Source: Patescibacteria group bacterium (GTDB taxonomy: Bacteria; Patescibacteriota; Minisyncoccia; Phycocordibacterales; UBA9973). From it: DNA of 64,000 nt. The first letter of the stretch is position 1, and each line of letters opens with the position of its first letter. This document shows positions 40,604 to 64,000 of this stretch, piece after piece. A program made the translations under genes and the position numbers. Where the stretch lies: contig JAUPVQ010000012.1 of assembly GCA_030916965.1 (NCBI GenBank), positions 776 to 64,775 on the forward strand. Reading direction: 5' to 3'. The notes beneath the pieces are model-generated. The model had not been told where the DNA came from. It saw only the letters and a program-made list of their open reading frames with translations, and made no database searches.

Positions 40604-40975
40604 TTATATAACCTCTGGTGCTAATGAAATAATCTTTTGGTAGCCACGCTCTGCTAGCTCTCGTGGAATTGGTCCGAATACACGACCTGCTTTTGGGTCT
40701 TGCTTGTCCTTTTCTAGTATTACTACTGCATTATCATCAAAACGAATATATGATCCATCCTTTCGGCGAAACGCATTTGTAGTACGCACAACTACAGCCT
40801 GACAGACATCCTTCTTCTTTATACCCTTGCGAGGTTCTGCAACCTTTACAGAAAGGATTACTTTGTCGCCAATATAAGCATAACGTCGGCGTGATGAGCC
40901 AAGTACTTTGAAGACCTTGCCAACCTTTCCGCCAGCATTGTCTGTTATTTTTACTACTGTTCCGTCTTGTATCAT
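40604..40975 (-). CDS. rplN: Ribosomal protein uL14
   Basis: 123 aa. MIQDGTVVKITDNAGGK... Confidence 0.9.
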   Translation of the reverse strand: MIQDGTVVKITDNAGGKVGKVFKVLGSSRRRYAYIGDKVILSVKVAEPRKGIKKKDVCQAVVVRTTNAFRRKDGSYIRFDDNAVVILEKDKQDPKAGRVFGPIPRELAERGYQKIISLAPEVI

Positions 40976-40979
40976 ATAA

Positions 40980-41228
40980 TTAAGCTATTACTTTAAATTT
41001 CTTATCTTTAGAGATTGGACGAGTCTCTACGATTTCTACCTTATCCCCTGTTTTCTTGGAATTTGTTTCGTCATGGGCCTTGTACTTCTTGCTGATTTTC
41101 AATCTTTTACCGTATTTTTTGTGCTCTACAAAGCGAGTAACAGATACTACAATAGTCTTGTCCATTTTATCTGAAACAACAACTCCTTTCAATACTTTAT
41201 TCTTTTTTACTTCTGTTTTTTCTTTCAT
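40980..41228 (-). CDS. rpsQ: Ribosomal protein uS17
   Basis: 82 aa. [18 protein letters not shown]... Confidence 0.9.
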
Positions 41229-41234
41229 AAAAAT

Positions 41235-41654
41235 TTATTGACGAGCTACGATGCGTGTCTTTAATGGTAATTTTGTACCAGCCTTGCGCAAAGCCTCACG
41301 AGCAAGAGCTTCTGGAATTCCATCTACTTCGAAAATGATGCGTCCTGGATTTACTTCCATACAGTAACCTTGTGGATCACCTTTACCCTTTCCCATACCT
41401 ACTTCTGCGGGCTTTGCTGTAAATGGTCGGTCTGGAAAAATACGAATCCAAATACGTCCAGCTTTTGTGATAGTACGAGTTGCAACCTTACGAGCAGATT
41501 CGATTTGGTTAGACTTTACGCGAGCGCTTGATGTAGCCTTCAATCCGAATGATCCAAAAGCAAGTGTAATACCCCGAGTATCTGGAGTACGACGCTCCAC
41601 ATTTCTGCGTGCTGTTTGCCATTTTCTAAATTTTACTTTCTTTGGGATTAACAT
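41235..41654 (-). CDS. rplP: Ribosomal protein uL16
   Basis: 139 aa. MLIPKKVKFRKWQ... Only 6 nt separate it from rpsQ, so no rpmC is encoded between them. Confidence 0.9.
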   Translation of the reverse strand: MLIPKKVKFRKWQTARRNVERRTPDTRGITLAFGSFGLKATSSARVKSNQIESARKVATRTITKAGRIWIRIFPDRPFTAKPAEVGMGKGKGDPQGYCMEVNPGRIIFEVDGIPEALAREALRKAGTKLPLKTRIVARQ

Positions 41655-42752: not shown

Positions 42753-43097
42753 TTATTTCTTCTTTGTATCTGTTGCACCCTTTGCAGCCTTGGCAGCAGT
42801 AATCTCGGCCTCTTTCTTCTTTTGCTCTAATTCTTTTTGCATTTTACCTCCATGGCGTACGAACTTACGAGTTAGAGAAAATTCTCCTAAACGGTGTCCT
42901 ACCATGTCTTCTGTAACCAATACTTCAACGTGCACCTTACCATTATGTACTCCGAACATGAATCCTACCATTTCTGGAGAAATTTGACATGCACGAGACC
43001 AGGTCTTTATCATACCTGTTTCGATTGGTTTCTTGCCAGCGATTTTTTTCAAAAGTCGCTCGTCTACGTATGGTCCTTTTTTAAGTGATCTTGTCAT
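42753..43097 (-). CDS. rpsS: Ribosomal protein uS19 (with a lysine-rich C-terminal extension)
   Basis: [19 protein letters not shown]... Confidence 0.9.
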
Positions 43098-43190
43098 ATA
43101 TAAAATAAAGCTCTACAGAGCTCGTAAGGTGTATATTATACCAAAGCGTTACAATAGTCAAGTTAATATATTATTGCTATAATAAAATCT

Positions 43191-43826
43191 ATGAATATAA
43201 TCAAATCCAAAGAATTGGCCAAAAAACTCTTGGAAATTAAGGCCGTAAAATTAAATGTTGAAAATCCGTTTACTTGGACATCTGGTACGATATCCCCTAT
43301 TTATTGTGATAATCGTATGGTACTTTCTTATCCAGAAATTCGAACTTTTGTAAAAAATGCTCTGGCTGAAATTATTCAAGACAAATTTCCAAACACAGAA
43401 GTCGTAGCCGGAGTAGCAACTGCAGGAATTGCACATGCAGCACTAGTATCGGATGTATTAAATTTACCGAATTGTTATGTACGTCCCGAGCCAAAAAAAC
43501 ATGGGATGAAAAATCAGATCGAAGGCAATCTACCAAAAGGTAGCAAGGTTGTACTAGTAGAAGATTTGATTGCAACTGGTAAAAGTAGCTTCCAATCAAT
43601 CCAGGCCGTTCGCGAAGCAGGCTCCGAGGTGATTGGGCTTGTGGCATTATTTACGTATGGATTTCCAGATGCAAAAGAATCATTTGATAAAGAAAATATT
43701 CCAACATATACTATTTCAAATTTCGAAACTTTGTGCACAGTTGCAGTAGAAGAAAATTTGCTCGATAAAAATAATCTAGAGAAAGTTATAGAATTCGCCA
43801 AAAACCGCGACGGGTGGAGAAAATAA
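43191..43826 (+). CDS. pyrE: Orotate phosphoribosyltransferase
   Basis: 211 aa. PRPP-binding loop VVLVEDLIATGKS. Confidence 0.85.
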   Translation: MNIIKSKELAKKLLEIKAVKLNVENPFTWTSGTISPIYCDNRMVLSYPEIRTFVKNALAEIIQDKFPNTEVVAGVATAGIAHAALVSDVLNLPNCYVRPEPKKHGMKNQIEGNLPKGSKVVLVEDLIATGKSSFQSIQAVREAGSEVIGLVALFTYGFPDAKESFDKENIPTYTISNFETLCTVAVEENLLDKNNLEKVIEFAKNRDGWRK

Positions 43827-43829
43827 ATA

Positions 43830-44558
43830 CTACTTGGCTATAAGCATTGCATCTATTATTTGTTGCAACACAAGTTGAGCTGCTTCAGCCCTATCTTTTT
43901 GTTGTGTGATACCTCGCCCTACAACAATAGCAGTAGCTCCATTTAAAATTGCATCTTTTGGTGTCATTGTGCGATTTTGATCATTGGTTACTGTCCAATC
44001 AGGTTGGATCCCTGGAGTTATTTTTATCAAATCGTTAAATTGTGGGTCCATGCATAGCATCAATAATTCATTTGGGGAACACACAATACCATCCATTTTT
44101 GAATTGAGTGCATCCTCTGCAAATTGATAAACTTTTTCATTGACTGGTGATCCAAATATATGCAAGCAATCTTCTTCAGTATGAGAAGTCAGTACGGTAA
44201 CACCCAAAATACAAGTATCCCCTTTGTTTTCAACGGCTCTTTCCAATGCTCTTGCTCCAGCTGAGCAATGCACTGTCATCATATCTACATTTTTTTGAAC
44301 CAATTTGGCCGTTGCATGACCTACTGTATTAGGGATATCGTGGAATTTACCATCAAAAAAAACTTTTGCTTTATATTTTTTAACAAGATTTATCATTGTG
44401 TCTATCCCATAAGCAGTACTTACTTCGAGCCCTATTTTATACCATCCACAGAATAAATATGTTTCTTTAATTAAATCTTCGATTTCGCCTAGACTAGCAA
44501 CATTATCGATAGCAATAATTAATTTATCTTTTGGTGTTTTAAATAGATTGTCTTTCAT
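43830..44558 (-). CDS. pyrF: Orotidine-5'-phosphate decarboxylase
   Basis: 242 aa. DGKFHDIPNTV (Lys-Asp-Lys-Asp array) and IVVGRGI. Confidence 0.85.
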   Translation of the reverse strand: MKDNLFKTPKDKLIIAIDNVASLGEIEDLIKETYLFCGWYKIGLEVSTAYGIDTMINLVKKYKAKVFFDGKFHDIPNTVGHATAKLVQKNVDMMTVHCSAGARALERAVENKGDTCILGVTVLTSHTEEDCLHIFGSPVNEKVYQFAEDALNSKMDGIVCSPNELLMLCMDPQFNDLIKITPGIQPDWTVTNDQNRTMTPKDAILNGATAIVVGRGITQQKDRAEAAQLVLQQIIDAMLIAK

Positions 44559-44559
44559 G

Positions 44560-45000
44560 TTAATTTAATATTATTTTTGGTAAGAATATTATCAAGCCTA
44601 TCACACTTGCCACAACAACAGAAATAAGGACTGCTCCTGCCGCGACATCCTTTGTTGCTTTCGCGTATGGGTGATATTCAGGACTAGTAAGATCTATATC
44701 TATCTCCATAGCAGTATTAAATGCCTCTGAAGCGAGCACGAAGCCCATAGCCAGCACTAGAACTGACCATTCAGCATGTGATATATCAAATTTGAAACCA
44801 AGAACTATAGCAACTATAGCTGCCACCATGTGCACCCAAGCATTGTGCTGTGTACGAAGCATAATCCCAATTCCTCGAAAAGCATGCTTGAAGCTACGCG
44901 CCCGAGCAATAATTGAGAAGTTCTTTTTAGTCAAAAATTTATCCATATACAGCATTATAACAAAAAATACCCATAACGGGTATTTTTTGTTATTCACCAA
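44560..45000 (-). CDS. dgkA: Prokaryotic diacylglycerol / undecaprenol kinase (DgkA family)
   Basis: SFKHAFRGI...EAFNTAMEIDIDL...AKDVAAGAVL parallels E. coli DgkA. The start may be at the internal MDKFL. Confidence 0.75.
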   Translation of the reverse strand: MVNNKKYPLWVFFVIMLYMDKFLTKKNFSIIARARSFKHAFRGIGIMLRTQHNAWVHMVAAIVAIVLGFKFDISHAEWSVLVLAMGFVLASEAFNTAMEIDIDLTSPEYHPYAKATKDVAAGAVLISVVVASVIGLIIFLPKIILN

Positions 45001-45010
45001 ACTTAATAAA

Positions 45011-45661
45011 CTAAAGAGGCCTTTGACTTGTTGTAGGATCTAATAACTTACCCATATTAGGAAGAGGAATATCACCTTCTGCTGAGACACTATTTACACC
45101 CGCTTCGTCGGGATTAATAAATTTTGTTATTAATAAAGCTTTAGTTTCTTTATTTATAGTTCCGCTCGCTGGAAGTTTGTATTTCTTTTGGAATTTAGTA
45201 ATTGCTGATTTCGTCATAGATCCATAATTTCCATCTACAGCACTAATTAATCCTTCATTTTTTAAAACAAGTTGTATTTTTTTAACATTTGTATTATTTT
45301 TATTCCCTAAAACAGGTGTTTTTGCATCAAAAACTTGTGAAGCACCAGTTGTAGGAAGTATAGCCCCTCCTCCATAAATACCATCTTCTTGCGGATTTTT
45401 ATTAGCAGAATATCCACGTGTATCACACCAGATCTTTGTACCATCACCTTTCATTTCTCCCCCAACTGTATATGTACTACCATCTGAATATGTAATAGTT
45501 ACCTGGCAAAGATTCCTACCTGAATCAGGATCATGACCTAAATATTTAGTAGTTCGTCCAACCTCATACTTTACTTCTTTTGCAAAAATGAACCCAGTAA
45601 ATGAAACAAACATAAGTATAAAAACAAAACTCCCTAAACCAATTTTTAAAAATTTCTTCAT
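45011..45661 (-). CDS. Secreted protein with a C-terminal peptidoglycan-binding (PG_binding_1-like) domain
   Basis: Signal peptide/anchor MKKFLKIGLGSFVFILMFVSFTGFIFA. C-terminal VKKIQLVLKNEGLISAVDGNYGSMTKSAITKFQKKYKLPASGTINKETKALL. Confidence 0.6.
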   Translation of the reverse strand: MKKFLKIGLGSFVFILMFVSFTGFIFAKEVKYEVGRTTKYLGHDPDSGRNLCQVTITYSDGSTYTVGGEMKGDGTKIWCDTRGYSANKNPQEDGIYGGGAILPTTGASQVFDAKTPVLGNKNNTNVKKIQLVLKNEGLISAVDGNYGSMTKSAITKFQKKYKLPASGTINKETKALLITKFINPDEAGVNSVSAEGDIPLPNMGKLLDPTTSQRPL

Positions 45662-45724
45662 AATATGAATAGAATTAAATTGTGTGTTGTTATAATAAAA
45701 TTACACACAACTTAAACTAATAAC

Positions 45725-45755
45725 ATTGTACCCCCCCCCCTCGGCCTCCTGTCAA
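45725..45755 (-). promoter_or_regulatory. Sigma70-like promoter with a G10 homopolymer inside the -35/-10 spacer
   Basis: Minus strand reads atatTTGACAggaggccgaGGGGGGGGGGTACAATgt: -35 TTGACA, 19-nt spacer ending in G10 (plus-strand C10 at 45731-45740), -10 TACAAT. Lies upstream of 45011..45661. Confidence 0.55.
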
Positions 45756-45794
45756 TATATTGTGGGGATAAATAATTTACTAAATACCCTATAT

Positions 45795-45826
45795 ATAAAT
45801 AATACACATTTAAGCATATGCATAAA
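45795..45826. repeat. Palindromic repeat element, copy A
   Basis: ACACATTTaaGCATATGCatAAATGTGT. About 27/32 identical to copy B. Terminator-like hairpin just 3' of gene 45849..46457. Confidence 0.6.
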
Positions 45827-45848
45827 TGTGTTTCATTTTATTTTTTTA

Positions 45849-46457
45849 CTACTTTTTTCTAATTCTTAGATACAACAATGATACTGCTACTGCGCCTAGG
45901 ACGTCTAGGAGCATATCCTTTTGTGCGTCCCAGATGTCGCCTTGAGAGCCTAGGAAGGCTGCTCCACTCTCCCCTCCATACAATTCTGCATACCACCATT
46001 CTGTCCATTCGTAGAACACAGCCACAAATGCTATAAAAAATATAGAATGAGTTATCGCGAGAAACCTTTTGGCCACCAACTTCCTTTCCACCATGTATTC
46101 AATAATCGGTAATGCATAGAATCCTACTGTAAAGTGCCCAATACGATCATACATATTACGCTCAAATCCGAAAAAGTTATTAAAGAAATCAAATGGTACA
46201 CGCTCAAATGTATAGTGCCCTCCAATAGTATGCCAAAATGGCAATATGAACATTAGTATATATGAAGTATTAGAGAATCGTACACCTCGGTAATATAGGA
46301 TTACTATAAACAAAACGAGCAACATAATAGGAATATTCTCGGCATACCAAACGCTCCGTGAATAAGGATTAATCCCTGCAACAATTGCCTCTATTACATA
46401 AAGGCCCAATAAAATATGTGGTAAATATTTTTTCATATTATAAATTACTAAATACAA
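45849..46457 (-). CDS. Polytopic membrane protein (202 aa), possibly YjdF/DUF2238-like
   Basis: 5-6 TM helices. Motifs HTIGGHYTFERVPF and ERNMYDRIGHF. The family assignment is from memory only. Confidence 0.45.
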   Translation of the reverse strand: MYLVIYNMKKYLPHILLGLYVIEAIVAGINPYSRSVWYAENIPIMLLVLFIVILYYRGVRFSNTSYILMFILPFWHTIGGHYTFERVPFDFFNNFFGFERNMYDRIGHFTVGFYALPIIEYMVERKLVAKRFLAITHSIFFIAFVAVFYEWTEWWYAELYGGESGAAFLGSQGDIWDAQKDMLLDVLGAVAVSLLYLRIRKK

Positions 46458-46776
46458 ATAATAAAATAATCATAGGCACAATAGTTAGAACTAATTCAAC
46501 AATAAAAAATATCCGGGCTATTCTATATGCTGAAGGACTTTTGGTGAAAATAATTACAAGTGCCGGAACAATGAATAATAAGATCGCAAAACTACCAGAA
46601 CTCCTGTTAAAAATAATTGGCAAGAGGAACAAAAAAGCATATATAACAAGCTGTATATAAGCAATAACTAAGATTACTTTAGATTTATGAAATTCTTTTA
46701 CAACAGCACTAACTGGTATTGGAACTGGTGGTGGAGTTATGATAGGTGGTATTTCCATAGATATTTTATTCCCCAA
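46438..46776 (-). CDS. Small 2-3 TM membrane protein (112 aa), paralogue of 47969..48289
   Basis: Pro-rich N-terminus. Shared block VVKEFHKSKVILVIAYIQLVIY versus VVAKEFKKNINAIILACVQIIVII. Confidence 0.5.
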   Translation of the reverse strand: MGNKISMEIPPIITPPPVPIPVSAVVKEFHKSKVILVIAYIQLVIYAFLFLLPIIFNRSSGSFAILLFIVPALVIIFTKSPSAYRIARIFFIVELVLTIVPMIILLFVFSNL

Positions 46777-47218
46777 CTACTTTGTGGCGACTTTGAGTGA
46801 GGTATATACCATATGTACATACGGCAATAAGGGCGAGCATTACTATGTAGAACTGGATTGTAGTGTGATGATTGATGAAATATACACTAACTTGAAGCAG
46901 TAGTTGCATAGCCAAGATTATACTGACCACGAAATATGGTACAAGTGCTACTGCATAACGCTCTTGTCTGTGAGAAAGTGATAGATTCAATACTAATGCA
47001 ATAACTAGGAAGAATATTATTACAACAGCATGCACAATGATCACACCTAAGTTGTCGAAATAGTCGAGCGGTGGCAATGCAATCAAACGGCCTGTATCGT
47101 AGAGTACCCTCTCGGCTAAGGCTAGAAGTGATAGGCCAAGGAGGGTCACAATAAATCCTCCAGTATTTGTAAACTTTGTTTTGAAAACATTTTCATTTTG
47201 TGTTGTTACAAGTGCCAT
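46766..47218 (-). CDS. 4-TM membrane protein (150 aa), same architecture as 48292..48768
   Basis: Overlapping or coupled genes. Hydrophobic profile. Confidence 0.5.
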   Translation of the reverse strand: MALVTTQNENVFKTKFTNTGGFIVTLLGLSLLALAERVLYDTGRLIALPPLDYFDNLGVIIVHAVVIIFFLVIALVLNLSLSHRQERYAVALVPYFVVSIILAMQLLLQVSVYFINHHTTIQFYIVMLALIAVCTYGIYLTQSRHKVVGE

Positions 47219-47222
47219 ATAA

Positions 47223-47867
47223 TTATGATTTCATATATTTTTGAATAAAAAGAATCGATCCTGTAAGTACAATAATTATAAGTATCAATACAACATACAC
47301 ACCATAAGCTGCATTAGCATTCAAAATATAGTTGCTAGTATCCCAAAGTAGTCGTACGAGCAAAAATCCGCTAACCAGGAAGTATGGCTGGGACATAATA
47401 AGGAACTTTTTCTTATGATCTCGGAAAGATTCATGCAAGATAAAAGCCACTACTATAAACGGGACAATCAGCATCACATCAAAAATCAATTTAGCATTTA
47501 TACTATTTGTAAATATAGCACTGTCATCTATTACCTTATTGAGGAGTATAAATATAGCAGCACAAAGCACTGTCGCAAGACCAATACTATATGGTGAATT
47601 GTACTCAACTGAGTGATTCTGGTTAATAGTATGACTACTTGCCACTGTAGACTTAGCAACATTTATAGATACTGTTTGTTGTGGAATATTTATTTGAGCT
47701 GTACCTGCTGGCACCGGCATCCCCTTCAAGAGCTTCATATGTGAATATGCTTCCTCTACTTCATTACTCTGCCATCCAGCCTTGGCCAATACATCCCGAA
47801 CAGCAGACTCGGTAAAACCCTGAGCCTCGACTGTCTTTATATAGTTCACCAACTGCTCATTTATCAT
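47223..47867 (-). CDS. Membrane protein (214 aa) with an N-terminal soluble helical domain
   Basis: N-terminal ~60 aa soluble (LVNYIKTVEAQGFTESAVRDVLAKAGWQSNEVEEAY), then 4 TM helices. Confidence 0.5.
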   Translation of the reverse strand: MINEQLVNYIKTVEAQGFTESAVRDVLAKAGWQSNEVEEAYSHMKLLKGMPVPAGTAQINIPQQTVSINVAKSTVASSHTINQNHSVEYNSPYSIGLATVLCAAIFILLNKVIDDSAIFTNSINAKLIFDVMLIVPFIVVAFILHESFRDHKKKFLIMSQPYFLVSGFLLVRLLWDTSNYILNANAAYGVYVVLILIIIVLTGSILFIQKYMKS

Positions 47868-47935
47868 GTATTTAAATTATACTACTTCTCAAAATTTACA
47901 CAATCAAAAACCAATTTTCCCCTTAATAAAAATGA

Positions 47936-47965
47936 TACACATTCTAGCATATGCTGAAATGTGTA
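47936..47965. repeat. Palindromic repeat element, copy B
   Basis: ACACATTCTAGCATATGCTGAAATGTGT. Near-perfect palindrome followed by a U-run on the minus strand. Confidence 0.6.
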
Positions 47966-47968
47966 TCA

Positions 47969-48289
47969 CTAATTTAATTTAGATAAAACAATACTCAAAA
48001 AATAGAAGAAAAAAAATATATACTCAACAGTCATTAAACTTTTTCCTATCTTATAGATAGATTCATCTTTCTTATTTGAAAACAAAATTAGAAGCGCGGG
48101 AATAATTGCAATTATCCACCAAAATGGGACATAGTAGAGTAAGGATTCTGGGTGAACTCGCACACGAAAAATATTAAATATAATAACAATAATTTGAACA
48201 CAGGCAAGAATAATAGCGTTTATATTCTTTTTGAATTCTTTCGCAACTACCGGCACATTTGATTTATTGTTAATTGTTTGTTGTTCCAT
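47969..48289 (-). CDS. Small membrane protein (106 aa), paralogue of 46438..46776
   Basis: Shared KEF-containing block. 2-3 TM helices. Confidence 0.5.
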   Translation of the reverse strand: MEQQTINNKSNVPVVAKEFKKNINAIILACVQIIVIIFNIFRVRVHPESLLYYVPFWWIIAIIPALLILFSNKKDESIYKIGKSLMTVEYIFFFFYFLSIVLSKLN

Positions 48290-48291
48290 AC

Positions 48292-48768
48292 TTAAGACAT
48301 TGTTTGTTGATCTTGTAAAAAGCTTATCTCGCCTTCATATTTTGTTCTACCTTGCAATCGCTTTGTTACCGATACAAAACTCCCAATTACTACAATATGA
48401 AAGAGAGGGACAATTATAGTTCCACCATATTGCCAGCATAAAAATCCTAGTCCGGCTTCAGTTGCAACACCAGGCACGAACCAACCAACAAAAACTGAAA
48501 GAAACAATACTATTGATACTACCGTATACAAAATATATTTTTTAAAATTTAAAAACATTCCCAAAAATACAATCAAAATAGAGTTTGCAAAAAAATAAAT
48601 ATCCATAGGGCTATTTCTTAAATTATAAAACTCAGAAAAATCCAAATACATTGGGAAATTACCTATCCTTAATGTAAGATGTACAATTGTTAACCAAACA
48701 GACAATATTCCAACAATTATACAAAATATTGCCCATCGATTTCGTTTTTTATCTAAAATAATTTGCAT
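48292..48768 (-). CDS. 4-TM membrane protein (158 aa)
   Basis: Hydrophobic profile. 3 nt from the next gene. Confidence 0.5.
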   Translation of the reverse strand: MQIILDKKRNRWAIFCIIVGILSVWLTIVHLTLRIGNFPMYLDFSEFYNLRNSPMDIYFFANSILIVFLGMFLNFKKYILYTVVSIVLFLSVFVGWFVPGVATEAGLGFLCWQYGGTIIVPLFHIVVIGSFVSVTKRLQGRTKYEGEISFLQDQQTMS

Positions 48769-48813
48769 ACATGTATTGTATCATCTATAAAACAAACTAC
48801 AATCAAAATTTAT

Positions 48814-49548
48814 TTATTTCATGCCTCTTACTAGCTCGATTTCTGATTTTAGCTTTGTTTCGACATCCTTTGAGCTTTTTATAAAGTCTACAACGGTAAA
48901 GCCGTGGTTGGATGTTAGTTCGTCGCTATGATCAGGGGTTGAATTAAATAATGCCGATTTATTACCTGCTGAAAAATTATCCTCTTTTATTAAATCCGGA
49001 TTATTATAATTGCTAATTCCAAAAATATTCTCATTGACAACAAAAAGCTTTCCGTTCGCGCAAATACTCTTACTCTCAGCTTTAAACATAGTCTCGCTAG
49101 TTGGGGGTAGAGTATTAGTTTTGTTTTTTGTTTTTTGATACATTATGATTGCATTTTTGTCACCAAAAGATGCTAGCCTTGATTTATAGTAAATATGCTC
49201 CGAGGAATCTACCTCCCACTTATTTTGAGGTGCTTCTTTGTAAGATTGAAGCAAGTTATGTTTCTTGGCTTCAGCAAATAGGACATCCGAAAGACTATCA
49301 CAGGCCTCTTTGTGCTTATTTATTTCAATTGTTTGCTCTTGTGTAAGCTTTATATTTTGGGTTGCACATTCTACCTTTTTTTGTTGTGCCTCTGAATAAC
49401 CAAAAGATGCTAGAAATAATGCCGATGCCACACCGAACCTCTTAAGTGAAGTGCGTAAAGATTCAAAAGTAGTCGGATCAGTATTTTCCTTGACCTCATT
49501 TTTGTTATTTAGAACATTGTCTTGTGATGCAAAATTAAATTTTTCCAT
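48814..49548 (-). CDS. Hypothetical secreted or membrane-anchored protein (244 aa)
   Basis: Hydrophobic signal-anchor LKRFGVASALFLASFGYSEA after a 35-aa N-terminal stretch. Cys-containing soluble domain. Confidence 0.45.
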   Translation of the reverse strand: MEKFNFASQDNVLNNKNEVKENTDPTTFESLRTSLKRFGVASALFLASFGYSEAQQKKVECATQNIKLTQEQTIEINKHKEACDSLSDVLFAEAKKHNLLQSYKEAPQNKWEVDSSEHIYYKSRLASFGDKNAIIMYQKTKNKTNTLPPTSETMFKAESKSICANGKLFVVNENIFGISNYNNPDLIKEDNFSAGNKSALFNSTPDHSDELTSNHGFTVVDFIKSSKDVETKLKSEIELVRGMK

Positions 49549-49587
49549 GGGTTAATTATAACATGGCCTACATGCAATACAATAAAA

Positions 49588-49622
49588 AATACCCTTGATT
49601 GTTCAGGGGTATTTTTTTAAAA
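49588..49622 (-). terminator. Strong intrinsic terminator directly after rplB
   Basis: AAAAATACCCCTGAACAATCAAGGGTATTTTTT (minus-strand sense). Confidence 0.6.
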
Positions 49623-50474
49623 CTATTTTGATTTTCTTGATTTTCCAACTTTTCTTCGAGATACAACAAACATGTTTGAGTATTTCTTTGGTGTTCGAGT
49701 CTTTTGGCCTTTACCTGTTGGCTTACCATACACACTCTTGGCACGGCGTAGTCCTCGTCCTTGTGCACCTTCACCTCCTCCGTATGGGTGATCCACTGGG
49801 TTCATGGCACTACCTCGAACTGTTGGACGGATACCCTTCCATCGGCTCTTGCCGGCTTTACCAAAGTTTTGAAGAATGTATTCTGAATTTCCAACTTCAC
49901 CGATTGTTGCCCAACATTTCTCGCTAACTTTGCGAACTTCTGTTGAAGGCATTTTCAAGTTTGTATATCCATTGTCATTTGCCACAACTTGCGCAAATGT
50001 ACCAGCACTGCGAACCATCTTTGCACCATTACCTGGCTTGACCTCTACGTTGTATACAAATGTACCAACTGGGATCACTGATAGTGGCAAACGGTTAAGT
50101 GTAGTAAGTGGAGCCTTTTCGGATACCATAAACTTGTCTCCTACTTTGATAGATTTTGGTAGTACTGTGTAGCGCTTCTCACCATCGGCATATACTGCCA
50201 ATCCTATGAATGCATTACGGTTCGGATCATATTCAACAGTTGTGATCTTTGCAGGGATATCATGCTTGTTGTACATGAAGTCTACATCTCGGTATAGGCG
50301 CTTGTTACCACCACCTTTGTGGCGAGTAGTAATACGGCCTTGGTTGTTGCGTCCTACAGAGCGCTTGAATCCATGTGTCAGAGACTTCTCTGGAGTACTT
50401 GTAGTCAAGACACCTCGGTATGTAACTGTAGTCTCGTGACGCTTTGATGGAGTTGTTGGTCTATATGTTTTCAT
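49623..50474 (-). CDS. rplB: Ribosomal protein uL2
   Basis: 283 aa. GRNNQGRITTRHKGGG...PVDHPYGGGEG. Confidence 0.92.
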   Translation of the reverse strand: MKTYRPTTPSKRHETTVTYRGVLTTSTPEKSLTHGFKRSVGRNNQGRITTRHKGGGNKRLYRDVDFMYNKHDIPAKITTVEYDPNRNAFIGLAVYADGEKRYTVLPKSIKVGDKFMVSEKAPLTTLNRLPLSVIPVGTFVYNVEVKPGNGAKMVRSAGTFAQVVANDNGYTNLKMPSTEVRKVSEKCWATIGEVGNSEYILQNFGKAGKSRWKGIRPTVRGSAMNPVDHPYGGGEGAQGRGLRRAKSVYGKPTGKGQKTRTPKKYSNMFVVSRRKVGKSRKSK

Positions 50475-62500: not shown

Positions 62501-64000
62501 TTAAATTTGAATATGAAAGAGTATTATCTATAGTTTGAGTTCCAGTAAGTGCATAATCTACAGTAGAGCCAGTACTGAGTGTGACTGTCTCAAAGCTTAT
62601 ATATGTCCCTGCAAAAGTTGAGTGTTGAGCTTTGACTGTACCGCTTGCGCCTACTGATAAGATATTTGTTCCACTACCTGTAAGAGTATATGAAGATGTT
62701 GGATCCAGAGTTCCTGCTGTAACCGTAGCATTACCATTGACTGTTGTACTTGCTCCAAGAGTCGCAGTTCCTGATCCATTTACGATCAGATGGTGATATG
62801 TTGTACCTTTTACGGTTTGAGCACTACCAGTATATTGGACAGTATTCGGGTTTGCAGTAGCAACAAGTGTGGTTATAGTAGGCACTGTTCCTGAAAATGT
62901 CAGGACTGCATCTGTACCTTGAGCAAGAGCTGTGACAGTTGTATTCGAACCAGAAAATGTTAAACCGTCCCCTGTAGTAATAGTATTTAACAGGGATGAA
63001 ATTGTAATACTTTGAGTCCCATCAATTGTCTGAGGATTTGTACTAAATGTATACACACTATAACCCGAAGTAAATGTACTTGTACTATTTACAGTCAAAC
63101 CTCCACGAAATTCATATGGGGCATTCCCCACTCCACCACTCCATGTTCCGCCATTATTCACAGTCACAGCACCAATAAATAGATTTGTTGCTGTAGGACT
63201 AGTATCTTGGAGTGTACCAGTGATTGAAGTAGTCCCTGTTACAGTCAGGTCATACATACTTGGATTAAATGTCCCTGCAGATATAATCAAATCACCACCA
63301 ACAACAATCGCCTCTCCAGAAGTTTTAGTTCCCGTACCGCTTGAAGTTAGACTATTAAAAGTAATTGCCCCAGAATTGACAGTCGCACTTCCATTCCCCG
63401 AAAGAACTACCGTCGAAGTGCCTGGTGTAAATGTTCCAGTTGCATGCTTAGTAAACAGTGTTCCACTTGTTCCCGATAGCGTAATTGTTGATCCATTGGC
63501 AGTCAATGTACCTGTTGAAGAAATGTCTAATGTTGTTCCAGAAAGTGCATAGTTTGTCCCGCTTGTTGTAAGTGTCCCATTTATAGTAATAGCCCCAAGC
63601 ACATTTGATGCTATATCCATGGTAATCACATCTCCAGCGCGGATAGTTGTTGTTGCTCCAGCCGTAGGCACTGACCCACAACTCCAAGTCCCTGCTGTAT
63701 TCCAGTTACCAGTTGTGACTTGAGAGGTACAAGTAATAGAAAATACCCATCCGCTACCAGCAGATGATGTTGACTGGTTATCTGTACTATTCACACCTCC
63801 ATTCCATGTTGCCCCTCCTGTCGCTACTGAGTGTTGAATATTTAAATAGTCAGAATTTACAATTCCTGATGCTTTTGAAAGTGTGTGTGTAGCTGTTGAA
63901 GTCGCTCCTGCTCCATTACCAGAATTGATTGTAATCAATGCTCCTGGGTTCCCAGATACTGTAAAGGTTGTGATAGTCTGCGTCGTACCTGCTGTAAATA
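59556..64000 (-). CDS. Giant surface protein (>1480 aa), partial: the N-terminus lies beyond the right edge of the window. Beta-helix-like Thr/Gly/Ser-rich repeats plus a BNR/Asp-box beta-propeller region.
   Basis: The reading frame is open to position 64000 (the track start at 63938 is an internal TTG). At least six Asp-box-like motifs (SVDNGATWS, SSDGGVTWT, STDSGVTWG, STDSGASWG, SANSGSSWT, SVDSGVNWT). ~100-aa internal repeats (TGSGTN.L.V..GA..K.QHSTFAGTY) also visible at the DNA level. Gly-rich C-terminus. Confidence 0.7.
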   Translation of the reverse strand, partial: FTAGTTQTITTFTVSGNPGALITINSGNGAGATSTATHTLSKASGIVNSDYLNIQHSVATGGATWNGGVNSTDNQSTSSAGSGWVFSITCTSQVTTGNWNTAGTWSCGSVPTAGATTTIRAGDVITMDIASNVLGAITINGTLTTSGTNYALSGTTLDISSTGTLTANGSTITLSGTSGTLFTKHATGTFTPGTSTVVLSGNGSATVNSGAITFNSLTSSGTGTKTSGEAIVVGGDLIISAGTFNPSMYDLTVTGTTSITGTLQDTSPTATNLFIGAVTVNNGGTWSGGVGNAPYEFRGGLTVNSTSTFTSGYSVYTFSTNPQTIDGTQSITISSLLNTITTGDGLTFSGSNTTVTALAQGTDAVLTFSGTVPTITTLVATANPNTVQYTGSAQTVKGTTYHHLIVNGSGTATLGASTTVNGNATVTAGTLDPTSSYTLTGSGTNILSVGASGTVKAQHSTFAGTYISFETVTLSTGSTVDYALTGTQTIDNTLSYSNLNTSGSGTKTLGGDTTVSGVLTITAGTLDASTFNTTLSGTTGTPFVVTGTFTPNLGTVTYTGNNSGGNTTVAGTNYYHLTINNSAETYVLGGAITGNSAGTLTITDGTLDTTSANNYDIIFGKINIANTATAGLTANGSTITLNETTGTLFTKGRYGVFNAGTSNVYLASGASSWTQQTGSGTRNWRSVASSADGSKLAAVVYNGYIYTSVDNGATWSTNSNSSGSHFWNSITSSTDGIKLAATDGNNGYIYTSSDGGVTWTTNSNSSGQHSWTGIASSSDGTKLVATADSDYIYTSTDSGVTWGTQSNASGTAGWTSVASSADGTKLAATVYSGYIYTSTDSGASWGTQSSASGSRLWYDVAISSDGTKLAAVNNAGYIYTSANSGSSWTQQTNSGVHDWETIAMSDNGNKLIAGASGDYVMTSVDSGVNWTEQTSAGARNWKSVASSADGVKFIGGAYTGYVYTYAPSSSTQNVTVASGSPEFNNLTSYSAGTKSLDAALIVTGALTISAGTFDTTAANNYTVWAGTITINGGTFTPQASIVSLTGASGILFTKSSGTFTAGTSNVDMIGNGSATVASGNPSFYNLTSSGTGTKSLGENLTVTNGLTISAGTFDPTTSFTATGSGTNTLTVSSGATIKVQHSTFAGTYPSFETRTMDSGSTVDYALAGTQTVDEAITYANLNTSGAGTKTLGGDTTASNLTIGASSTLDGSSYTLTLSGIGNVFTNSGTYTANTSTIKFTDSSSNAKTLALGGGTYNNIWLAPSTGTGSYTITGSNTFNDFKDDGTGAHDINFTEGTTTTISSLTLDTNASSRISLKSSIPSLYWYLVDSSGTNTVSYISIEDSCASGGASWIASDGTSIDVNHNCGWVFFVGSRGGGSGGSVESSATPQGGVTGGGVDGGSGGAGGEGSGDVGTCADSIQNGDETGVDSGGRCAGNGGQGGGGGGDLGFSYTRSMLASAGSINFRQSFRNLFGNLFRFF

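Follow-up and report, generated by a model that had tools for sequence, protein, structure and literature searches.

Among the closest described relatives of the system considered here is that of the Escherichia coli and Pseudomonas regulator PaaX, whose E. coli operator is TGATTC(N27)GAATCA and which represses its own synthesis, the Px promoter of paaXY overlapping the site (PMC9493321). The 64,000-nucleotide stretch analysed here (the window; 64 kb of one contig from a Patescibacteria group bacterium of the candidate phyla radiation, CPR) carries two copies of a long palindrome built on a similar plan: in its consensus form, inverted repeats of 6 bp (TGATAC/GTATCA) make up the outer ends and are separated by about three turns of the helix. 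The genomes of Patescibacteria are tiny and encode very few recognisable transcription factors; to our knowledge almost nothing is known about how their genes are regulated. The two palindromes are probably, with a probability of roughly 0.6 as judged from sequence comparisons, the cognate binding sites of a CPR-specific protein of ~200 amino acids (aa), here called mini-PaaX, whose gene would lie beyond the window.

Mini-PaaX shares with PaaX a core composed of a winged helix and a Cas2-like (PaaX_M) domain, and the promoter of its gene likewise overlaps a palindromic site, so that the protein may also repress itself. In contrast to PaaX (~300 aa), mini-PaaX lacks the C-terminal ligand-binding domain and carries an extra hydrophobic helix at its N-terminus. 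The spacer between the outer arms of the CPR palindromes is 24 bp rather than 27 bp and has a strongly conserved GCATATGC centre, and the mini-PaaX gene has sites on both of its sides. No paa genes were found near mini-PaaX.

On the plus strand of the window the core of copy 1 is ACACATTTAAGCATATGCATAAATGTGT (45804-45831) and the core of copy 2 is ACACATTCTAGCATATGCTGAAATGTGT (47937-47964). Both sequences had been quoted exactly in an earlier note on this DNA, which located copy 2 correctly and placed copy 1 at 45795-45826, several nucleotides away from its actual position. The note had given their identity as 27/32; the similarity is real, with 24/28 positions of the cores identical and all four differences confined to the two 3-nt blocks that separate the ACACATT arms from the GCATATGC centre. 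The palindromes are also longer than the ~30 bp first proposed, since both reach 36 bp in the form TGATACACATT-N3-GCATATGC-N3-AATGTGTATCA. Copy 2 (47933..47968; TGATACACATTCTAGCATATGCTGAAATGTGTATCA), with outer arms TGATAC...GTATCA, is near-consensus. Copy 1 (45800..45835; TAATACACATTTAAGCATATGCATAAATGTGTTTCA), with TAATAC...GTTTCA, is degenerate, differing from TGATAC/GTATCA by one change in each outer arm. The copies are 2,133 bp apart and are the longest inverted repeats of the window. The pattern ACACATT-N2-AGCATATGC-N2-AAATGTGT with up to three mismatches matches the window at these two places only and gave no match in 100 dinucleotide shuffles of the window; ACACATT-N6-20-AATGTGT is likewise found only at the two copies. 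A scan of the window against Rfam 15 at the gathering threshold left the palindromes unmatched and returned only tmRNA and one tRNA.

Several possible origins of the pair were considered and rejected. Regular direct repeats with spacers of 25-50 bp, as in an array of clustered regularly interspaced short palindromic repeats (CRISPR), are absent: the window copies are separated by 2,133 bp, and the copies that flank mini-PaaX genes elsewhere stand ~650 bp apart around a gene. Recent segmental duplication is contradicted by the similarity stopping within ~60 bp around the palindromes and by the neighbouring genes, as identity is only 26% between the two neighbouring 106-aa proteins and the 158-aa protein is unrelated to the 150-aa one. 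A megablast search of 44000-50000 against phages gave no match. Two matches from a motif scan of viral contigs lack the extended arms and were dismissed as chance matches.

The search for further copies that the earlier note had proposed found the same extended palindrome in related CPR genomes. One genome from each of 185,579 species was scanned with ACATT-N3-GCATATGC-N3-AATGT, giving 30 loci, of which 16 are in CPR metagenome-assembled genomes (MAGs) labelled Saccharibacteria, Nomurabacteria, Paceibacteria or plain 'bacterium'. These 16 loci comprise 17 sites, and 16 of the 17 (all but that of L022) have extended complementary arms. The exact TGATACACATTT...AAATGTGTATCA form (TGATAC...GTATCA) is present at nine of the 16 extended-arm sites, two of them in the MAG JADLCZ01, and TGATAC-N24-GTATCA is common to copy 2 and 12 sites of related MAGs and contigs. 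Six of the extended-arm sites, in five loci, directly adjoin a PaaX_M gene of ~200 aa, the mini-PaaX gene, and at L008 palindromes stand at both sides of it. Solo sites share their arms with the gene-adjoining sites of the same MAG, namely GATAC in CAYHYF01 and CAZCFW01 and CTAGC in CAYPFT01; the fragmentary CAYHYF01 contains six exact-core copies. JADLCZ01, which also supplies the closest relative found of the window's own locus, bears TGATAC-type sites at other loci (L024, L026), and the window's lineage therefore possesses the system. The recurrence of the same 36-bp sequence in other CPR genomes, together with its link to a PaaX-like gene, supports the leaning of the earlier note towards a protein-binding or repeat-element role.

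A TGATAC-type solo palindrome is found between the convergent rsmE and RNase HII genes in both CAYHYF01 (L023, 3462-3485) and JADLCZ01 (L024, 4759-4782), an orthologous position at which no promoter would be expected. The core matches outside the CPR were not retained as members of the family, as they are operators of unrelated regulators or lie in unrelated contexts: the promoter region of a PadR-family regulator in Bradyrhizobium, the interval between an IclR regulator and a major facilitator superfamily transporter in Paraburkholderia, and a position after rpoC in Clostridia. The core alone is therefore not diagnostic. The Bradyrhizobium loci (L007, L013, L014, L019, L025, L027, L030 and L035) share TTGACATTATGCACATTGGCGCATATGCGTCAATGTGCATATGG where the gene of the PadR-family regulator is divergent from a SnoaL-like gene; this sequence is probably the operator of that regulator and unrelated to the CPR palindromes.

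Mini-PaaX matches the Pfam family PaaX_M (PF20803) with E values of 1e-16 to 1e-22 and has weak matches to Cas2, a winged-helix profile and TIGR02277 (PaaX), the last covering the end of the winged helix together with the Cas2-like domain. It was rejected as an orthologue of PaaX, being 195-230 aa long, matching PF20803 only, lacking the C-terminal domain and scoring 18-23 bits against TIGR02277, for which the cut-off is 264.55. The AlphaFold model (pLDDT 65) consists of a long hydrophobic N-terminal helix, a poorly resolved region of helix and beta-hairpin, and a confident ferredoxin-like domain, and its best matches among PDB structures are Cas2 proteins and E. coli PaaX 8A39 (E ~4e-3). A sequence search of the PDB with the family profile gave nothing significant, and libraries of defence-system and phage proteins gave Cas2-like partial matches only. 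An Asp of the Cas2 type at the end of strand 1, within an FDLP motif, is invariant in mini-PaaX. Among 5.8 billion proteins, 310 homologues were found at E<=1e-5; the 120 homologues listed are all ~200 aa and, where names are given, these are Patescibacteria, 'hypothetical' or 'PaaX'. The number of confirmed metagenome loci is at least 511.

The association between gene and palindrome was measured in 80 metagenome loci that were chosen by the mini-PaaX protein alone and so are unbiased for the DNA motif; 74 of them were evaluable. Palindromes of 36 bp scoring at least 15/18 were sought within 220 bp of the gene and were present downstream of it in 39/74 loci and upstream in 25/74. Their density is 2.07 per kb in these flanks vs 0.046 per kb in the remaining 323 kb, a ~45-fold enrichment, and their centres lie 16-61 bp past the stop or, mostly, 20-48 bp ahead of the start. 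The upstream and downstream copies are 85% identical inside a locus, compared with 44% between loci. The half-site profile shows a conserved centre (G 88%, C 93%, A 79%, T 77%), an A/T-rich middle and 7-8 variable nt at the outer end; the family centre GCAT|ATGC is retained and the outer arms change locus by locus. The same arrangement of palindromes and gene is seen at L037, L117, L123, L124, L125 and L126. Two of these, L037 and L117, encode proteins 75% and 93% identical to that of L016 and bear the TGATACACATTT type of the window. Synteny around this cassette of gene and palindromes is conserved within clades, and no conserved functional neighbour was found, the adjacent genes being assorted housekeeping genes (trmD, ychF, map, secY, rpoB, rpoD). 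In some loci the cassette is beside genes for RNA polymerase or sigma factors, either upstream of rpoB (L054, L058, L125) or after rpoC-dnaG-rpoD (L123). In the window, rpoC ends at 63938, and rpoB and anything upstream of it are beyond the window.

The upstream palindrome overlaps the promoter of the mini-PaaX gene. In nine loci (L037, L039, L040, L069, L092, L117, L124, L125 and L126) exactly 20 bp separate the centre of the palindrome from the ATG; an extended -10, TGnTA(A/G)(A/T)AT, occupies the half nearer the gene, and the outer arm 17 bp upstream is -35-like, giving a predicted leader of 2-3 nt. Upstream copies of the TGATAC type carry ATGCTAAAAT towards the gene, and the downstream and solo copies have ATGCGGAAAT (GGAAAT). 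In other clades an extended -10 directly follows the palindrome. As far as sequence can indicate, the upstream palindrome has the geometry of an autorepressed promoter.

These features could also be taken to mean that each palindrome functions as a sigma-70 promoter in both directions, its outer arm serving as -35 and TGnTAnnnT in the opposite half, across a 17-bp spacer, as extended -10, with conservation due to contacts with RNA polymerase. The nine cassettes with good extended -10 elements 20 bp from the ATG fit such an account, as does copy 2, whose minus (coding) strand reads GTGATA-17-TGcTAGAAT, a -35-like element and an extended -10 facing the 214-aa gene. Over all half-sites, however, position 2 of the hexamer is A in only 49% and position 1 is T in only 33%; no usable -10 is present in the downstream and solo TGATAC sites (GGAAAT, TGAAAT) or in copy 1 (TTAAAT, ATAAAT). 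The locus-specific arms, moreover, point to a specific factor, and the account is very unlikely.

Selection for RNA structure was examined as a further explanation and rejected. Among 14 TGATAC-type sites, 11/16 stem pairs are invariant and, of the two variable pairs, one is unpaired in 5/14 sites and the other in 6/14; pairing and covariation in these sites are no higher than in shuffles, 57/500 and 60/500 of which reach the observed values. Mismatches in 68 cassette palindromes (29 A.A or T.T, 20 G.T, 12 A.C) display no clear or significant excess of G.T wobbles, and the 3' flank is not T-rich across the family (T 35%, A 39%). The palindromes therefore appear, from these patterns of change, to be elements of sequence recognition and not of RNA structure.

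A related alternative, that the window copies do no more than terminate transcription, Rho-independently, after the 106-aa gene and after the operon ending with the DUF2238 gene, their similarity being incidental or the result of an old duplication, is quite unlikely. It would account for the position of both copies 0-17 nt past a stop on the coding strand. The earlier note had placed each a few bp after the stop of a minus-strand gene; copy 2 abuts the stop (47969-47971) of the 106-aa gene, and copy 1 is 13-17 nt past the DUF2238 stop (45849-45851). The predicted hairpins on the minus strand are stable, at -15.1 kcal/mol for copy 1 and -21.5 kcal/mol for copy 2 (z-scores -3.6 and -5.2). The U-rich tract that the note had assigned to both copies is clear after copy 2 (UUUUUAUU) and weak after copy 1 (AUUAUUUAUAUAU). 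The ~17 nt past each copy on the minus strand are also alike, AT[T/C]ATTT[A/T]TAT..AGGG, the conserved tail being TTTTTATTAAGGGG at copy 2 (47919..47932, part of the palindrome-bearing block that is missing from the relatives L004 and L120) and TTTATATATAGGG at copy 1 (45787..45799). In the relatives L120 and L121 a classic terminator occupies the equivalent slot before a promoter, and the window copies may have a secondary role as terminators or roadblocks.

The clear terminators of this genome are shaped otherwise, with an A-tract, a unique, GC-rich stem and a T-tract; two of them, of the form AAAAAATACCC...GGGTATTTTTT, lie inside the same island as the palindromes, after rplB and after the PG_binding gene. 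The CPR palindromes resemble bidirectional Rho-independent terminators in standing directly past stops, sometimes between convergent genes, and in the hairpin and U-rich tail of the window copies. They differ in that the stem sequence itself is conserved across genomes, recurring elsewhere as the same 36 bp, in that changes at the variable pairs are uncompensated and mismatches lack a wobble bias, and in having no general T-tract. They are also tied to one gene on both of its sides, the upstream copy embedding its promoter, and a recent duplication is excluded by neighbouring proteins of at most 26% identity. The uncompensated changes, the flank that is not T-rich and the differently shaped terminators therefore argue against an account by RNA structure or termination alone. 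The earlier note had left open a terminator, an operator or both; its operator half fares well and a terminator-only role does not.

The window includes pyrF, a diacylglycerol (DAG) kinase gene, tmRNA and ribosomal protein genes, and almost every gene near the palindromes is on the minus strand. An island of ~6.5 kb (43098-49622) splits the S10 ribosomal operon between rplB (49623-50474) and rpsS (42753-43097). The island begins with genes for proteins of 244, 158 and 106 aa, followed by copy 2, the genes for proteins of 214, 150 and 106 aa and for the DUF2238 protein, and copy 1; after copy 1 come the PG_binding_1 gene, the DAG kinase gene, pyrF and, on the opposite strand, a phosphoribosyltransferase gene. 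The two copies thus bracket a four-gene operon on the minus strand (45849..47867; 214 aa, 150 aa, 106 aa and the DUF2238 protein of 195 aa) encoding small multi-pass membrane proteins. The 214-aa protein has a soluble N-terminus and three transmembrane (TM)-like segments, the 150-aa protein four and the 106-aa protein three. Upstream of copy 2 is another 106-aa, three-TM gene (47969..48289, minus strand).

The operon is preceded by a sigma-70-type promoter of the 214-aa gene (47876..47903, minus strand; TTGTGT-16 nt-TATAAT, 8 nt to the ATG), which is kept in L004 and L120. With the TATAAT only 8 nt from the ATG (47865-47881), the mRNA of the 214-aa gene is probably leaderless or near-leaderless; the same geometry of -10 and ATG is observed at the mini-PaaX genes of nine other CPR loci. 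Downstream of copy 1 the PG_binding_1 gene (45011..45661, minus strand), for a secreted 216-aa protein, has the promoter TTGACA-N19-TACAAT (45725..45755, minus strand) with a run of G10 in its spacer, and this is, as the earlier note had said, the G10 promoter. The 40-45 bp between each palindrome and the next -35 proved approximate: copy 2 is 29-33 nt away from its -35, and for copy 1 the interval is 44-48 nt.

The island varies among close relatives. Five Logan contigs are 100% identical to the window, and a sixth, L004, is 99.4% identical from 47909 downwards. L004 lacks the 244-aa gene, carries a 72-aa gene where the window has the 106-aa gene and copy 2, and retains copy 1 and the 214-aa gene promoter. 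The closest relative found, L120 (JADLCZ01), is 81-89% identical to the window and has the order rplB, classic terminator, promoter, genes for proteins of 215, 151 and 109 aa, the DUF2238 gene and the DAG kinase gene. L121 has rplB, a terminator, a 158-aa gene and the DAG kinase gene, so that the gene content of the island is different in each of the window, L004, L120 and L121. The block homologous to L120, 81.6% identical, is 45847-47910, exactly the stretch between the copies, and homology with L004 and L120 restarts at 47909/47910. One variable block, 47911-49575, has copy 2 at its 3' end; the other, 44947-45846, has copy 1 at its 5' end and, comprising copy 1, the promoter and the PG_binding_1 gene, is missing from L120 and L121. 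From the block boundaries in L120 and the replacement in L004, each palindrome is therefore the edge of a strain-variable block. The earlier note had tied the copies to the downstream promoters, a view not supported by L004 and L120, in which the 214-aa gene still has its promoter but no palindrome before it; on these alignments the palindromes are evolutionarily labile and independent of the downstream promoters.

The architecture of a gene between palindromes recalls the repetitive extragenic palindromes (REP, REPIN) and their REP-associated tyrosine transposases (RAYT; TnpA_REP). The palindromes of the window could be solo copies of a comparable selfish or genome-structuring repeat, with the palindrome-gene-palindrome unit as master element and the Cas2-like protein propagating or maintaining the palindromes, which would come to lie at cassette boundaries. 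In both systems a single gene lies between its own cognate extragenic palindromes, here in variable contexts among housekeeping genes; copies are dispersed between genes, often just past stops or between convergent genes, with solo CPR sites in co-directional, convergent and divergent intergenic regions; and the repeat type varies with the locus, the arms being alike within a locus or MAG and different between loci. The window copies stand at the edges of variable blocks and are missing from L120 and partly from L004. At L043 (1659, 2311) the flanking palindromes are exact reverse complements of each other (40/40), like terminal inverted repeats, though each is imperfect as a palindrome (15/18), and the invariant Asp of mini-PaaX is of the Cas2 type.

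Other features set the CPR palindromes apart from such repeats. Their copy number, as known from the window and fragmentary MAGs, is one to two orders of magnitude lower, with two copies in 64 kb and six exact-core matches in one MAG. They are near-perfect over 36-40 bp and lack a GTAG head, and the upstream one doubles as the promoter of the gene. No target-site duplications or discrete filled and empty sites were seen, the palindromes being gained and lost together with genes, and cassette synteny is kept within clades. Mini-PaaX has an unrelated fold, matching PaaX_M and Cas2 only, and is not an HUH/Y1 transposase; we know of no nuclease activity in PaaX_M domains. An origin of the window copies as solo repeats of this kind is rather unlikely. 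It is also unlikely, on the same comparisons, that the palindrome-gene-palindrome unit is a self-contained CPR-wide module in which the winged-helix/Cas2-like protein maintains, pairs or propagates the palindromes, their copies defining and perhaps mobilising or exchanging cassettes.

If the palindromes are instead sites for mini-PaaX, a dimer would be placed on each of them with its two winged helices on the outer arms, in the manner of E. coli PaaX on TGATTC-N27-GAATCA, and mini-PaaX would repress its own gene through the promoter inside the upstream palindrome. In the window, bound mini-PaaX would mark both boundaries of the operon for the 214-aa, 150-aa, 106-aa and DUF2238 membrane proteins. 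Copy 2 is probably a repressible auxiliary promoter or operator, because its promoter-type asymmetry (TGcTAGAAT) faces into this operon. Both copies would probably also block read-through, by a protein roadblock together with an RNA hairpin and U-rich tails, and the sites could thus serve as regulated insulators between neighbouring cassettes of the strain-variable island.

A number of observations weigh against the assignment of the palindromes to mini-PaaX. The tie between protein and palindrome is drawn from association. An hmmsearch of the 64-kb window with the family profile found no mini-PaaX gene, and the candidates considered for that of this genome (P0002, P0007, P0009, P0034 and P0047) were rejected, all being derived from different samples or assemblies. 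Confidence is low for the winged-helix part of the AlphaFold model (pLDDT 40-50), the palindrome threshold is reached by only about half of the cassettes, and L120, the closest relative found, has neither copy. The centres of the window palindromes are at about -83 and -97 from recognisable starts, which is not the classic position for steric repression. Three of the ten solo sites lie between convergent genes, and the downstream neighbour of the cassette is convergent in 28/62 loci (~45%); for many sites a role as promoter operator is therefore impossible. Any effect of many of the sites on transcription would be that of boundaries, through roadblock, insulation or site pairing, and not of promoter occlusion.

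Other features of the island were observed beside the palindromes. The G10 run (C10 on the plus strand, 45731-45740) makes up most of the 19-nt spacer of the PG_binding_1 gene promoter and is G9 in L004, giving an 18-nt spacer; the difference could be an error of assembly or a sign that promoter strength is phase-variable through slipped-strand changes. A second inverted repeat (45679-45715), TTGTGTGT ... ACACACAA with ~16 nt between the arms, falls within the 5' untranslated region predicted for the PG_binding_1 gene and may form a regulatory hairpin. The island encodes two 106-aa three-TM proteins (47969-48289 and 46438-46758) that are distant paralogues (26% identity, pairwise E 5e-5); Pfam has no family for either, and libraries of defence-system and phage proteins gave no match for the island proteins of the window. 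Farther along the ribosomal operon (40975-41235), rplP (L16, 41235-41654) is immediately followed by rpsQ (S17) and rplN (L14), with no rpmC (L29) between them. This order is common to the window, L120 and L121, and L29 may be encoded elsewhere or missing.

Among systems that organise chromosomes, ParB/parS, Noc/NBS (Noc-binding sites) and MatP/matS similarly have palindromic sites that number from a few to tens in a genome and are placed regardless of promoters, in some cases beside the protein's own gene, and a membrane anchor such as that of Noc is possible for mini-PaaX. In contrast to these systems, mini-PaaX has no homology to ParB, TetR or MatP, its sites are much longer, and their arms diverge fast between related genomes. 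No description of a mini-PaaX protein-palindrome pair was found in the searchable literature.

Mini-PaaX and its palindromes would constitute a protein-site pair that is widespread in Patescibacteria and has a readable recognition code, composed of variable outer arms around a conserved GCATATGC centre. Its architecture would be unusual, with sites flanking the regulator's own gene and one of them embedding the promoter of a near-leaderless mRNA. Were the palindromes to be maintained by a self-propagating module, this would be a functional analogue of REP/RAYT on a Cas2 fold and might connect PaaX-type regulators with repeat-associated Cas2 in evolution. If the assignment to mini-PaaX is correct, the pair would make a regulon or insulator system of CPR bacteria tractable for the first time, would give a function to a family of 'hypothetical proteins', and would help to explain how cassettes inserted in a highly transcribed ribosomal operon are kept transcriptionally separate.

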